From positions 25,394 to 89,393 of the forward strand of contig NZ_JMCB01000003.1 in the NCBI RefSeq assembly GCF_000737315.1: DNA of 64,000 nucleotides. Reading direction: 5' to 3'. Source of the DNA: Hyalangium minutum. Its GTDB lineage: Bacteria > Myxococcota > Myxococcia > Myxococcales > Myxococcaceae. Made by a program: the position numbers and the translations under genes. Positions 34,924-41,080 of the stretch are shown one piece after another. Below the pieces are notes generated by a model, which saw only the letters and a program-made list of their open reading frames with translations, was not told the origin of the DNA and ran no database searches. Within the stretch, counting starts at the first letter, position 1. Each line of letters opens with the position of its first letter.

Positions 34924-35901
34924 TCAGTCAGCAGGCTTCGTCGAGGCTGCTTTCCGGGCCAGTTCGAGCTGCTCGCGGATCCACTCTCTGTAGAAGTAGG
35001 TGCTTGTGTACTCGGAGAACTCGACAGGGGCGCGATAGCTCGTCTTCGCGATCCCGACGAGCTCCAAGGCGTCGCCGTTCTCGCGGAGGCACGGGCCTCC
35101 ACTGTCTCCAGCCAGTGCGTACGAGGCGGTCTCCCGCATCAGGAGCGGCTCTCCCTCGGAGAAGGTGGGCGGAATGAGCAAGGGCTTCGCGATGCGAAAG
35201 GTCTTGCCGTCCGTCTCTTCCAGAGATGCGACCTCATTGGTGCCTATCCGGCGAGCACCGCCATCCTCAGCATTGGGTCTCGTGACACCGTAGCCCACGC
35301 TGATCACGGGTTCTGAGACACGGACCTTGGTGCGAGAGAGAGGAACGGCACGGAGTCCGCCAACGAGCGGTCGATCCAGGACAATGACTGCGAGGTCCGC
35401 ATTGCTGGAGAGTTCCCGGCTGTCCGACTCACGGGCGTAACGGATCTTGAGCTCCGGATGAGGACGAACCCGCCCAGTGTGCGAGATGACATCTGCTGGC
35501 CACTGCAGGTCCTCTCGCAGGATGCTTCTCTGCTCTTCTGAGAGGGGCCTGTAGCGGACGGTCGTCACAGTGGCGGTCTTGGCGCACTGGGATGCATCAA
35601 CGACGAAGGTCCCTGCGTCTTCGGGAGTGGTCCCTGCATGGGAGGCGCACACGCAGTGACCAGCCGTGAGAATGAGCTGAGCATGGGTGAGCACCCCGCT
35701 GCACGTTTTGAAGGCTACGCCTTTCCTGCTATCGAAGGTCGCGGTGACCCTGACGGTCGAGGCGTAGCGGTTCGAGGCATCCAGGACACTCTCCGAGACA
35801 ATGGAGTAGCCACCGCTGGTCTGCTGCACCGCACCAGGACCCGCACAGCCGATGAGGGCTGTGAGCGGGAGCCAGATAAGGCATCTTGTGAAAGGGCTCA
35901 T
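34924..35901 (-). CDS. Trypsin-like serine protease lipoprotein (S1 family)
   Basis: Lipobox 'LTALIGC', catalytic His in 'TAGHC', catalytic Ser in 'GDSGGPC'. Confidence 0.8.
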   Translation of the reverse strand: MSPFTRCLIWLPLTALIGCAGPGAVQQTSGGYSIVSESVLDASNRYASTVRVTATFDSRKGVAFKTCSGVLTHAQLILTAGHCVCASHAGTTPEDAGTFVVDASQCAKTATVTTVRYRPLSEEQRSILREDLQWPADVISHTGRVRPHPELKIRYARESDSRELSSNADLAVIVLDRPLVGGLRAVPLSRTKVRVSEPVISVGYGVTRPNAEDGGARRIGTNEVASLEETDGKTFRIAKPLLIPPTFSEGEPLLMRETASYALAGDSGGPCLRENGDALELVGIAKTSYRAPVEFSEYTSTYFYREWIREQLELARKAASTKPAD

Positions 35902-36815
35902 GGGACCTGACCTTCAGCGGTGTGCCTGAGTTCACTCCGCACCCACGCTTGATATCCGTGGATGCTCGTGCAGGCTGCGCCCCTTCCCAGGTTCCTGCTG
36001 GAGACTCCGACGAGGAGGGAATGGCCCGAGTCTTCGCGCAGGCAGGGGCCGCCGCTGTCGCCCTTGTAGAGGTGTCCAGACGGTTGCCTCACCAGGATCC
36101 TTGAGTCGCCAGCCACGGGAGGTCTCGTGGCCGTGTTTCTGCTGAACCGGCGGTTTTGATCATAACGATCATAGATCTCATCGTAGGCCTGCCCGGCGAT
36201 GATGAGGGTCTCGGGAGGTTGAGCCTCCGTGCGTGCCATAAGGACAGGGGAGATCGCTTCTTCCACGGGACTTTCCAAGTGAATCATCGCAAGGTCCGCG
36301 ACGCTGGAGACAACTTCTCCGTGGTCATTCAGGAGCACGCGGAACGCCGGGTGGGGATGGACCACTCCCAGGTAGAGCGCGCTGCTGGAACTGGCTTCAT
36401 CCTCCAGGCCTGGGACGGGGGTGTAGAGGATCGTCGAGACGGCCGCCCTCTGGGCGCAGTTCGAAGCATCCATGAGGGAGGCGGACTGCGGGGCGCATAG
36501 GCAGTGCGCAGCTGTCAGGACAGCCCGGCGGTCCACCAGCACGCCGCTGCATCGCTTCGACTGCTCGCCGAGACGGGCGCCGACCACCACCGCCGAGGCG
36601 TAGCGGTTCTCCTTGTCCAACTTGCCCGCGAGCAGGAGCCGATCCGCCTCGATGGTCAGGGCCAGGGACTCCCCGAGCTCCCCAGCGATAGGGCTCGTGA
36701 CAGTCCTGGGGGCCGCAGGGGCAGGGGGAGGTCTCGGGGCCTGGCACCCATCGCAGCCCACGAACGCGGTGAGCGCCAGAAAGGCTGTGGCGAGCCAGCC
36801 CCGAGGGGAGGGCAT
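35898..36815 (-). CDS. Trypsin-like serine protease lipoprotein (S1 family), paralog
   Basis: Lipobox 'LTAFVGC', 'TAAHC', 'GDSGGPC'. Overlaps its neighbours by 4 bp. Confidence 0.8.
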   Translation of the reverse strand: MPSPRGWLATAFLALTAFVGCDGCQAPRPPPAPAAPRTVTSPIAGELGESLALTIEADRLLLAGKLDKENRYASAVVVGARLGEQSKRCSGVLVDRRAVLTAAHCLCAPQSASLMDASNCAQRAAVSTILYTPVPGLEDEASSSSALYLGVVHPHPAFRVLLNDHGEVVSSVADLAMIHLESPVEEAISPVLMARTEAQPPETLIIAGQAYDEIYDRYDQNRRFSRNTATRPPVAGDSRILVRQPSGHLYKGDSGGPCLREDSGHSLLVGVSSRNLGRGAACTSIHGYQAWVRSELRHTAEGQVP

Positions 36816-36816
36816 C

Positions 36817-38139
36817 TCAGAGGCCGGCCAGCGACATGTTCTGCTGGCGCTTGGACAGCACCTTCACCGGCTGGATCGCCATCACGCGCATGAAGACCTG
36901 GAGCAACTCCGGGTCGAACTTGTTGCGCATCTCCGTCCACATCAGCATCAGCGACACCTCGGGCCCATACGCATCCCGGTACGGCCGCTTGCTCGTCAGT
37001 GCGTCGAACGCGTCGCAGATGGCGATGACCTTCGCGTACACCCCGAGGCTCGTCTTCGGGATGATCATCTGGATGTTGCCGCGCGTGTCCCGCACCGCCG
37101 TCCCGAAGTCCGCCTTGTGCTCGAACGTCGTCACCACCCGCAGCAGCGTCGAGCGCGTGATGCTCTTCTCCATCAGGATGTTGCGCACCGAGATCAGCGG
37201 CGCCTTCTGGATCAGCACCTTCTCCTCGGACGTCAGCGCCCCGCGCTTCGTCGCCAGCTCGTCCGGGATCGTCGACATCCCCGCGTCGTGGAACAGCGCG
37301 ATGTAGCCCAGGTCCCGCAGCTGCGGCTTCGTCAGCCCCAGCTCCGCCCCGAACACGATGCTCATCAGGCACACGTTCACCTGATGGAACACCAGGTACT
37401 CCGACTCGCGCTTCGTGGTGGTCATCCCCAAGAAGTGCGTTCGCTGATCGTACGAGATGTCCACCAGATCCTGGACGAGCCGCAGCGCCTTGGACGTGTT
37501 CATCGGCTTCCCGGCCCGCACCGACTCCAGGTACTTCTGCAGGAAGAACACCGCGCGCGCGTACACCGTCATCGCGTACTTCTTCCGGTCGACCTTGTAG
37601 TCGCCCGGGTTCTCCAGCTTGTCCGCCTCCTTGGCCAGCTTCTCGCGCAGCTTGGAGAACTTGGCGACCTTCATGTTCAGCAGCTTCCGGTCCGCCAGGC
37701 CCTCCTCGCTCGCCTCCGAGGTCTGCTCCTTGCTGAAGATCCATACGAAGTTCTTCAGCTCCGGCAGGGTGATCGGCTTGGAGATGGAGAACCCACCCAC
37801 GTCCTTGGCCCGCATCTCCGACAGCAGGTAGCGCTGGTTCTCGATGGCGTTCAGGTCCACCTTCACCAGCATGCTGTTCAGGTAGAAGGAGTCCTTCACC
37901 CCCACCAGATCCAGCCGCCCCTCCTTGGAGACGATCTGGTTCATGATGTCCTGCAGCTGCGTCAGCGGCTTCTCGAAGACGGCGTTGTCCGGGTCATACA
38001 TCTTCACGGACCGCACCAGCATGTAGAGCCCGGACACCATCCCGCGCGCCAGCGTCTGCAGCTTGTCCGAGTGCGCACGGCCATACTCGCCACCGCTGCT
38101 CTCGCTCTGGGCCTGGGTGATTTTCAAGTTGTCGGCCAT
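36817..38139 (-). CDS. HD-domain protein of the HD-GYP type with a degenerate GYP motif (putative c-di-GMP-related phosphohydrolase)
   Basis: 'ALFHDAGM' is an HD motif. 'AICDAFDALTSKRPYR' is typical of HD-GYP proteins. The expected 'HHExxDGxGYP' reads 'FEHKADFGTAV'. Confidence 0.7.
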   Translation of the reverse strand: MADNLKITQAQSESSGGEYGRAHSDKLQTLARGMVSGLYMLVRSVKMYDPDNAVFEKPLTQLQDIMNQIVSKEGRLDLVGVKDSFYLNSMLVKVDLNAIENQRYLLSEMRAKDVGGFSISKPITLPELKNFVWIFSKEQTSEASEEGLADRKLLNMKVAKFSKLREKLAKEADKLENPGDYKVDRKKYAMTVYARAVFFLQKYLESVRAGKPMNTSKALRLVQDLVDISYDQRTHFLGMTTTKRESEYLVFHQVNVCLMSIVFGAELGLTKPQLRDLGYIALFHDAGMSTIPDELATKRGALTSEEKVLIQKAPLISVRNILMEKSITRSTLLRVVTTFEHKADFGTAVRDTRGNIQMIIPKTSLGVYAKVIAICDAFDALTSKRPYRDAYGPEVSLMLMWTEMRNKFDPELLQVFMRVMAIQPVKVLSKRQQNMSLAGL

Positions 38140-38143
38140 GGCT

Positions 38144-39910: not shown

Positions 39911-40089
39911 GCGTCCTGGGGGGTTCGGACAGGGTGAGGGAGTCCGAGTCTACTCCCTCATACGCCCCAGGAGATCCCTCTGCATGGGAACTTCCGCTCA
40001 GGTATGTAGGTTGAGAGCCTACCGTGAAAACGGCAGCGCCCCCGCCAGCGAGGGCAGGGGCGCCGGTACGGCTTGGGCCGAGCGGGGCG

Positions 40090-40980
40090 TTACTGGGCCG
40101 CCACGGCGGTGTCCGGATCCACCTCGGCCATGAGCGCGGCCAGCTCGGCCTTGAGCTTGTCCTTGGCGCGGATCTCCAGCTGGCGGGCGCGCTCGCGCGA
40201 GAAGCCGAAGTGCTCGCCCAGCTCCTTGAGCGTCATGGGGCGCTCATTCATGACGCGCTGCTCGATGATGAAGCGCTCGCGGGGATCCAGCCGCATCAGC
40301 GCGGTGCGGACGCGGGCGTTGATGAGGCCCGCCTCCTCCTTGTCGGCGAACTCGTCATCCTGCGGGGCGCTGGCGCTCACCACGAAGTCCACGTGGCTGT
40401 TGCCGCCGTCCTCGCCCATGGGCGCGTCCAGGGAGAGATCGCGGCCGCCCATGCGCTGCTCCATCTCGCGCACCTCGCCCGGCTTCACGTGCAGCTTGCG
40501 GGCGATGTCGTCCACATTCACCACGTCGCCATCGGGAGTGCCGAACTTCTCCAGCTCGCGGCGGGTGCGCGCCAAGCTGAAGAACAGCTTGCGTTGAGCC
40601 TGCGTCGTCCCCAGTTTTACCAAAGACCAAGACTTGAGAATGTAGTTCTGGATGTACGCGCGGATCCACCACACCGCGTAGGAGATGAGGCGGATGCCCT
40701 TGTCCGGATCGAACTTCTGCACGGCCTTCATCAGGCCGATGTTCCCTTCCTGGATGAGGTCGCTCATCTTGATGCCGTAGGAGCGGTACTCGTAGGCGAC
40801 CTTCACGACGAAGCGCAGGTTGCTCGTCACCAGCCGGTGGCCCGCGGACAGGTCCCCCTTGAGGAACTTCCGGGCCAGCGCTTGCTCCTCCTCCACCGTG
40901 AGCAGCGAGTAGTGGTTGATCTCCGAGAGGTACATCGCCAGGGAGCCGGAGTTGGAAGACTGCTCGTGGGTGTTTTGCAT
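40090..40980 (-). CDS. RNA polymerase sigma factor, sigma-70 group 3 (RpoH/sigma-32-like)
   Basis: Region 2 '[37 protein letters not shown]', an RpoH-box-like 'QRKLFFSL', and region 4 '[20 protein letters not shown]'. Confidence 0.85.
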
Positions 40981-41064
40981 GGTTCAGTTCTCCCGACGGC
41001 GGGCTTCAGATGAGCCCGTGATGAGTGTGGGGACCGCTTGTCGACCGCACGCTGGATGTCATGA

Positions 41065-41080
41065 GCAACCGCAGTGCCAG
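41065..41080 (-). promoter_or_regulatory. Sigma54-type promoter upstream of the sigma-factor gene
   Basis: The reverse complement reads 'CTGGCACtgcggTTGCT', which is TGGCAC-N5-TTGC. It sits about 85 nt upstream of the start codon. Confidence 0.45.

Follow-up and report, generated by a model that had tools for sequence, protein, structure and literature searches.

A sigB ortholog, a conserved HEAT-HD gene pair and lineage-specific protease genes as neighbouring units of probably differing age in Hyalangium minutum

SigB of Myxococcus xanthus is a development-specific sigma-32-like sigma factor (Apelian & Inouye 1990 and Ueki & Inouye 2001, as cited in PMC4320627 and PMC2875238). By its title, the work of Ueki & Inouye (2001) finds SigB to be needed for differentiation and not for heat shock. 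In the supplement to PMC2875238, MXAN3357 is identified as sigB and MXAN3356 as an OPT transporter, and sigB is listed as up-regulated during development. The second described system that bears on the present locus is the HD-GYP family, in which a guanine-recognition motif, Rxx(K/R), has been defined (bioRxiv 10.1101/600031). An RxxQ signature has been tied to selectivity for 3',3'-cGAMP (cyclic GMP-AMP) (Wright et al., bioRxiv 10.1101/600031). HD-GYP domains of a degenerate type have been recognised before; one NCBI record in the family carries the name 'HD-GYP domain, c-di-GMP phosphodiesterase class II (or its inactivated variant)'. Here, a window of 64,000 nt from Hyalangium minutum (NZ_JMCB01000003.1) is compared with these systems. 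In this window a sigB ortholog lies upstream of genes for a HEAT-repeat protein, a degenerate HD-GYP protein (HD protein) and two trypsin-like proteases, and the studied genes and elements are all on the minus strand. A sequence-only reading had treated these genes as a developmental cascade. The comparison makes it probable that the region instead consists of three units of differing evolutionary age (sigB, the HEAT-HD pair and the proteases), not of one cascade.

The HEAT-repeat gene (38144..39910; 588 aa; MXAN_3354 family) and the HD gene (36817..38139; 440 aa; MXAN_3353 family) form an old two-gene module that is the truly conserved unit of the region. The window proteins were mapped onto 36 related genome loci, which were collected with the HEAT protein as query, and onto the M. 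xanthus locus. The two genes are adjacent in 31 of the 31 myxobacterial loci that contain both. The gap between them is 1–7 nt in 24 of the 29 loci where both start codons are called, and it is 4 nt in the window (TGAagccATG). Across the loci, the conserved backbone runs from TgpA through HEAT-HD to an RluA gene on the opposite strand. The TgpA-like transglutaminase gene of the window (41351-43348) is upstream of the sigma-factor gene.

The pair is also found outside the myxobacteria. Metagenome contigs were scanned with an alignment of canonical family members, and the resulting survey comprises 80 metagenome loci in addition to the 36 genome loci. A full-length HD-family protein is present in 34 metagenome loci, 31 of which retain at least 600 nt of upstream sequence. 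In 29 of these 31, the gene immediately upstream, in the same orientation, is a HEAT-family gene with both the N-terminal domain (N-domain) and the repeat region. The contigs that carry the pair range from 36 to 67% GC. The two genes overlap by 4–11 bp in metagenome-assembled genomes (MAGs) labelled Thermodesulfovibrionales/Nitrospirota, Candidatus Eisenbacteria and Gemmatimonadota. The metagenome loci were also searched by tblastn for SigB, a cyclic-nucleotide-binding (cNMP-binding) protein, an enhancer-binding protein (EBP) and the proteases, and none of these is consistently linked to the pair. A SigB-like gene is near the pair in only 1 of the 80 metagenome loci.

The HEAT and HD proteins begin with a common alpha/beta domain of ~120 aa that lacks a Pfam model. 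In the HEAT protein, this N-domain (~aa 17-151) is followed by a low-confidence linker and a helical solenoid (~aa 240-580). The protein belongs to the HEAT-repeat class by both a repeat hidden Markov model (HMM; Pfam HEAT_2, 28.5 bits against a cut-off of 27.7) and its alpha-solenoid fold. In the HD protein, the homologous N-domain (~aa 25-160) precedes an HD-GYP-like domain (~aa 245-420). BLASTP of the HEAT protein against the HD protein gives no match, and a shallow profile comparison is marginal (E = 0.021). With deeper profiles, hhalign aligns HEAT residues ~21-127 with HD residues ~26-138 over 107 columns (E = 2.9e-7, 93% probability). The HMM of the HEAT N-domain directly matches the N-termini of HD-family proteins. 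In the AlphaFold2 (AF2) models, both N-domains have the same order of elements, which is two long helices, a beta-hairpin, a strand, helices and a strand. The predicted local distance difference test (pLDDT) score is ~65-92 for the HEAT N-domain and 61-91 for the HD N-domain. A Pfam search at E <= 10 finds nothing on either N-domain.

Gene fusions join the same two parts. A search with residues 1-240 of the HD protein against a library clustered at 50% identity gives 362 matching representatives, most of which are 400-500 aa long and end in an HD/HD_5 domain. Two proteins, P0350 (1004 aa) and P0384 (955 aa), are simple HEAT::HD fusions. The chain of P0350 first matches HEAT residues 28-567 (E = 4e-50) and, further along, the HD protein, and P0384 is built in a similar way. 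Both parts also occur within the larger multidomain proteins P0408, P0385 and P0416, whose additional regions make a read-through artefact unlikely. A hetero-complex of the HEAT and HD proteins is the most economical reading of their common domain, their close gene pairing and their fusions. The two proteins would associate through the shared N-domain, and the HEAT solenoid may then serve as a docking platform. No description of the HEAT and HD-GYP pairing, of the N-domain shared across phyla or of the degenerate myxobacterial branch was found in the searchable literature.

The HD protein belongs to the HD-GYP family by homology and fold, with a Pfam HD_5 score of 53.2 bits and matches to canonical HD-GYP structures at E = 7e-11 to 4e-6. 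Its residues were mapped by alignment to PmGH (4MCW) and V-cGAP3 (5Z7C), and substitutions were counted over 32 orthologs with 63–100% identity. Residues H252, H284, D285, D379, R385 and R388 are invariant. The equivalent of PmGH H250 is Ala in 31 of 32 orthologs and Val in one, that of PmGH H277 is Lys in 32 of 32, and the Lys of HDxGK is Met in 32 of 32. The HDAGM and DALTSKRPYR motifs and the degenerate GYP box that had been read from the sequence alone are borne out, and GTAV replaces GYP in every one of the 32 orthologs. The full motif HHExxDGxGYP is represented by EHKADFGTAV. At the position of PmGH D305, 19 of 32 orthologs have Ala or Val; Asp is found there in this genome and in 90% or more of the 53 close homologs aligned. 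The HD protein does not contain the complete bi- or tri-nuclear ligand set of HD-GYP domains (H, HD, H, HH, D). It does contain the Rxx(K/R) motif, as RPYR.

Outside the myxobacteria, the HD-GYP domain of the family is canonical. In distant family members, the H/HD/GK/H/HH/D set is complete and SGYP is present, often with RxxQ. In many canonical members of the subfamily, RxxQ is found in place of Rxx(K/R). Within the myxobacteria, the loss of second-metal ligands, the strict conservation of their replacements and the retention of the base-recognition RxxR favour an impaired protein with a regulatory or receptor-like role. The myxobacterial HD protein would serve mainly as a regulatory subunit with impaired catalysis rather than as a phosphodiesterase, and its ligand would be a nucleotide, probably a cyclic dinucleotide. 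A broader proposal can be put forward only tentatively. In it, the HEAT-HD pair would be a so far undescribed cyclic-dinucleotide signalling complex of several phyla, in which the HD-GYP protein and the HEAT scaffold dimerise by way of their common N-domain and the scaffold controls the phosphodiesterase or its targets. The enzyme of fruiting myxobacteria would have turned into a pseudo-enzyme receptor beside the sigma-54-controlled SigB.

The sigma-factor gene (40090..40980; 296 aa) is the Hyalangium ortholog of M. xanthus sigB, a known developmental factor. This assignment is based on the match to the MXAN_3353-3357 locus and on the identity of 274 of 296 residues with the MXAN_3357 protein. 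In M. xanthus, the order is TgpA, the sigma factor (295 aa), the OPT transporter, a small opposite-strand gene, HEAT (MXAN_3354), HD and a convergent pseudouridine synthase. The window protein contains the Pfam domains Sigma70 r1.2, r2 and r4. It passes the NCBIfam model NF005143 for the sigma-32 subfamily (318.1 bits against a cut-off of 241), which agrees with its earlier description as an RpoH-like group-3 sigma factor. Its score falls just under the cut-off of the RpoH equivalog TIGR02392 (318.3 against 323.1 bits), and the protein is sigma-32-like without being certified as RpoH. The consensus of the RpoH box is QRKLFFNLR, and QRKLFFSLA in the translation is identical at 7 of 9 positions. 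An identity with SigC was rejected. Both M. xanthus proteins are 295 aa long; the locus corresponds to MXAN_3353-3357 and sigC is MXAN_6209.

In M. xanthus, the OPT gene MXAN_3356 (L001 3107-5572) is directly downstream of sigB. In PMC2875238, the two genes fall in the same late 'up2' class of the glycerol-induced sporulation arrays, and they may be co-transcribed. Among the entries listed in the 2010 array supplement, MXAN_3353 and MXAN_3354 are absent. The eLife 2019 supplements contain none of the MXAN_3353, 3354, 3356 and 3357 tags, and the main text of that paper uses MXAN_RS tags. MXAN_3353 is not named in the main text of the papers searched.

A -24/-12 element of the sigma-54 type, TGGCACTGCGGTTGCT (TGGCAC-N5-TTGCT), is located at 41064..41079, ~84 nt upstream of the sigma-factor ATG. 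It is the sole perfect match to TGGCAC-N5-TTGCW in the 64 kb. A single match is at chance level, with 0.14 expected and one or more matches in 13 of 100 shuffles, and is not significant alone. The promoter is accepted because both boxes are conserved across orthologs, not from the single match. In an alignment of 11 orthologous upstream regions, which has a mean column identity of 51%, TGGCA and TTGCT are the only invariant runs. The spacer and the flanks diverge among these sequences; the N5 spacers are TGCGG, CGCGG, CCCGG, CGTCG, GCACG, CCGCA, TTCCG or TTCTG, depending on the lineage. The alignment takes in orthologs with SigB identities of only 83-85%. Where the start codon is correctly placed (10 related loci and the window), the element is 73-106 nt upstream of the ATG. 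In M. xanthus, for example, TGGCATttctgTTGCT is found 80 nt upstream of sigB. The near-consensus sigma-54 element that had been noticed upstream of the sigma-factor gene is thus recovered with both boxes invariant, and comparative criteria give strong support to a genuine sigma-54 promoter of sigB.

From this promoter, sigB would be transcribed by sigma-54 RNA polymerase with the help of an EBP. A perfect 9-nt inverted repeat, TACAGACCG/CGGTCTGTA, was found in a repeat search at 41164..41203. Its arms are separated by 22 nt, and it lies 85-125 nt upstream of the -24 element. The repeat is only partly conserved in the alignment of the Hyalangium clade. It is a candidate enhancer, or upstream activating sequence, to which the EBP may bind ~100 nt further upstream. 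A tblastn search with the FHA-type EBP of locus L004 finds no sigma-54 AAA+ activator domain in the window. The same search gives only an FHA-domain match, at 61920-62234. No statement on sigma-54 dependence of sigB was found in the searched literature; the dependence may be known elsewhere, and key older papers are outside that search. A sigma-54 promoter would put SigB under the EBP network that drives fruiting-body development.

The position of sigB relative to the HEAT-HD pair is variable. It directly abuts HEAT only in the Hyalangium clade, which comprises the window and L003-L009 (8 sequences). In Myxococcus and Cystobacter, the OPT transporter gene is between sigB and HEAT. In L012, L017 and L033, sigB is followed by a gene for a 954-aa TLC/MFS-plus-HEAT membrane protein, a gene for a 137-aa cNMP-binding protein and then HEAT-HD. 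In most of the more distant MAGs, the TLC/MFS-HEAT and cNMP-binding genes are present and sigB is absent from the locus. These two genes precede HEAT-HD in L012, L017-L024, L026, L027, L029-L034 and L037 (Myxococcaceae MAGs; L033 6646-9924), and both are absent from the window. The 954-aa protein is TLC/MFS transporter-like with HEAT repeats at its C-terminus, and the 137-aa protein is 83-90% identical across those loci.

Two further features lie between sigB and HEAT in the window. The first is a GC-rich hairpin after the sigB stop codon (40034..40065), which has a 13-bp stem followed by GUUUU. Its RNA fold is -37.8 kcal/mol (z = -2.25), and it is a possible weak intrinsic terminator. Similar hairpins follow sigB in L003 and L008. 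The second is a -10-like hexamer, TAGACT (39947..39952), 36 nt upstream of the HEAT start codon. In 32 of 34 loci, the pattern TA[GCA][AG][CGA]T occurs no more than 60 nt from the HEAT start, compared with 1.5% of random 60-nt windows. The hexamer ends 33-44 nt from the HEAT start in the Hyalangium/Cystobacter clade. In the 21 loci outside this clade, 8-12 nt separate its end from the ATG, a spacing that suggests a leaderless HEAT mRNA there. The conserved hexamer, the hairpin and the variable position of sigB, taken together, indicate that HEAT-HD has its own promoter. The pair would be read from TAGACT as a promoter of the sigma-70 type. A simple sigma-70 promoter scan called no promoter. 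A terminator scan returned three terminator-like sites, all of which are on the wrong strand and which are fewer than in shuffles. A permissive Rfam search of 33000-41500 found no match.

The proteases are encoded at 35898..36815 (protease 1, 305 aa) and 34924..35901 (protease 2, 325 aa). Both match Pfam Trypsin and contain the motifs TAAHC/TAGHC, DLA and GDSGGP. They had been described as paralogous S1-protease lipoproteins. Their paralogy is clear (31% identity, E=7e-30) and protease 2 has a lipobox, LIGC. Protease 1 has a non-canonical FVGC that fails the strict lipobox pattern; its ortholog in L006 has LMAC at this position. NCBI annotates protease 1 as 240 aa, which drops the signal peptide. 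The 305-aa form is supported because the lipobox region is kept in the L006 ortholog. This form starts after a 1-nt gap from the HD stop codon.

The protease genes share an ATGA overlap (4 bp), which is the sole overlap among the HEAT/HD/protease junctions. Of the two 4-bp overlaps that had been claimed, this one stands; the HEAT/HD and HD/protease 1 junctions are gaps. The four genes are co-directional, as had been stated. A fifth co-directional gene (33658..34914), which begins 9 nt past protease 2, had been overlooked. It encodes a coiled-coil, proline-rich protein of 418 aa that is labelled 'TolA protein' by UniRef and has orthologs in L005 and L006. The 418-aa protein has no Pfam match. 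NCBIfam gives only weak sub-threshold matches and no names for the HEAT protein, the proteases and the 418-aa protein.

The protease pair is present in only 1 of the 37 other loci (L006; 36 related loci and M. xanthus). Among the other close relatives, the region downstream of HD contains a gene for an FHA-type sigma-54 activator in L004 and radical-SAM genes in L007; the rest have different genes there or none that was identified. The proteases sit in a variable stretch between HD and the coiled-coil gene. The G+C content at third codon positions (GC3) is 0.93 in sigB, 0.94 in HEAT, 0.96 in HD, 0.76 in protease 1, 0.72 in protease 2 and 0.80 in the 418-aa gene, and codon usage shifts at the HD/protease boundary. 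By gene content and composition, the protease genes appear to be a recent insertion and ordinary lineage-specific accessory content. In H. minutum, the tight spacing makes it probable that transcription from the HEAT-HD promoter continues into them, which would be a lineage-specific link. The association of the sigma factor with the proteases reflects the gene order of this lineage.

The alternative to three units is the cascade of the sequence-only reading, in which a sigma-54 promoter drives SigB, and the HEAT, HD and protease genes form one operon transcribed by or with SigB. Several observations weigh against separate units and fit this cascade. SigB is kept next to HEAT in all 8 Hyalangium-clade sequences, and M. 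xanthus sigB is up-regulated in development according to PMC2875238. The gaps from HEAT to the 418-aa gene are 4, 1, -4 and 9 nt. The scan gave no minus-strand terminator-like site between HEAT and the 418-aa gene, and a five-gene transcript or read-through from sigB is thus possible in H. minutum. The post-sigB hairpin was not called by the simple terminator scan because its U-tract is short, and SigB could itself read the TAGACT promoter. The comparative pattern is not congruent with the cascade. Gene order is conserved only for HEAT-HD, which does not agree with a single HEAT/HD/protease operon. The proteases are missing from all related loci except L006 and deviate in GC3, and the claimed link between a phosphohydrolase and secreted proteases is not supported. 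In most lineages, sigB is split from HEAT by the OPT gene or by the TLC-HEAT and cNMP-binding genes, or is absent from the locus. Where the two are adjacent in the window, a hairpin and a conserved -10-like box lie between them, and in other phyla HEAT-HD occurs without a nearby SigB-like gene in all but one of the metagenome loci. The cascade is considered improbable. It is less probable still, to the point of being very hard to sustain, that TGGCAC-N5-TTGCT is a chance match or functionless remnant and that sigB is read from another type of promoter. One perfect match in 64 kb of GC-rich DNA would be compatible with chance, as the shuffles indicate. What speaks against chance is that both boxes stay invariant, at much the same distance from the ATG, between a spacer and flanks that diverge.

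The impaired state of the HD protein must be weighed against an active one. The HD protein could be a phosphohydrolase with a mononuclear H...HD...D site, whose activity or location is modulated by the HEAT protein. Its substrate would be cyclic di-GMP (c-di-GMP), cGAMP or another nucleotide, for example (p)ppGpp or a deoxynucleoside monophosphate (dNMP). This genome and its close relatives have the complete classical mononuclear tetrad (H252, H284, D285 and D376), which makes hydrolytic activity possible. Three of these residues are invariant in the orthologs, and D376 is kept here, as it is in 90% or more of the 53 close homologs. RxxR is also invariant, and the canonical members of the family look catalytic. 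Confidence in the AF2 model is low for the HD domain (pLDDT 40-50), which further tempers the view of an impaired protein. On the other side, every ortholog lacks the GYP motif and two of the three ligands that serve only the second metal, and has Met in place of the Lys of HDxGK. The D305 equivalent is replaced in 19 of the 32, although the remaining domain is strongly constrained. The closest structural neighbour, Bd1817, reportedly does not hydrolyse c-di-GMP in vitro. An active enzyme is judged rather unlikely, and the impaired regulatory subunit remains the preferred reading of the myxobacterial HD protein.

Other genes near HEAT-HD and in the window are recorded here as separate observations. 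An EBP gene is directly downstream of HD in L004 (13105-14460; Hyalangium versicolor, FHA-type) and in L120 (6579-7970; Candidatus Eisenbacteria MAG, receiver-type). An EBP gene also directly follows HD in the metagenome contig L039 (~8054-9004). This arrangement could be due to chance or to a recurrent link. HtrA-type trypsin-PDZ genes occur 3-5 kb from the pair in L119 (563-1930; Thermodesulfovibrionales) and L121 (1-556; Gemmatimonadota). They echo the proposed protease link and are probably a coincidence. On the plus strand of the window, positions 30824-33145 encode a bacterial protein of 773 aa that is homologous to the Major Vault Protein of eukaryotes. It matches Pfam Vault, Vault_2, Vault_3, Vault_4 and MVP_shoulder (E down to 2e-45), and a long coiled-coil tail follows. 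Orthologs with 92-93% identity are in the same position in L005 and L036.

The comparison identifies one HD-GYP subfamily that almost always has a HEAT-repeat partner with the same N-domain, in several phyla. The MXAN_3353/3354 pair of M. xanthus is genetically tractable and carries the degenerate form. MXAN_3353 may have been left out of earlier c-di-GMP surveys.

The window and the M. xanthus SigB locus share TgpA upstream, the MXAN_3354 and MXAN_3353 genes downstream, and the same -24/-12 element, which is ~80 nt upstream of the ATG in M. xanthus. The M. xanthus locus differs in that MXAN_3356 (OPT) and a small opposite-strand gene are located between sigB and HEAT-HD, and in that it is without the protease genes. 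Two other systems are related at the level of the promoter. The M. xanthus lonD/HsfA system is said to have a sigma-54-dependent promoter upstream of a heat-shock-type gene. The P6 promoter of Escherichia coli rpoH is reportedly a sigma-54 promoter upstream of a sigma-32-family gene, and would likewise represent a hierarchy in which sigma-54 controls a group-3 sigma factor. The downstream factor here is developmental rather than a heat-shock factor, to judge by the title of Ueki & Inouye (2001).

The HD protein is similar to the canonical HD-GYP proteins PmGH (4MCW), PA4781 (4R8Z), V-cGAP3 (5Z7C) and DvhD (9RBZ/9RC0) in its H...HD, DxxDAL and Rxx(K/R) elements. It differs from them at H250, H277, the Lys of HDxGK and GYP, all of which are replaced, with replacements that are invariant apart from the single Val at the H250 position. 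It also differs in having another N-terminal domain and an obligate HEAT neighbour. Bd1817 of Bdellovibrio bacteriovorus (PDB 3TM8) is an unconventional HD-GYP protein without the GYP tyrosine. It reportedly keeps the full binuclear metal-ligand set. The HD protein of the window differs in that two of these ligand histidines are lost in every ortholog, and in that it is accompanied by a conserved HEAT-repeat protein with the same N-terminal domain.

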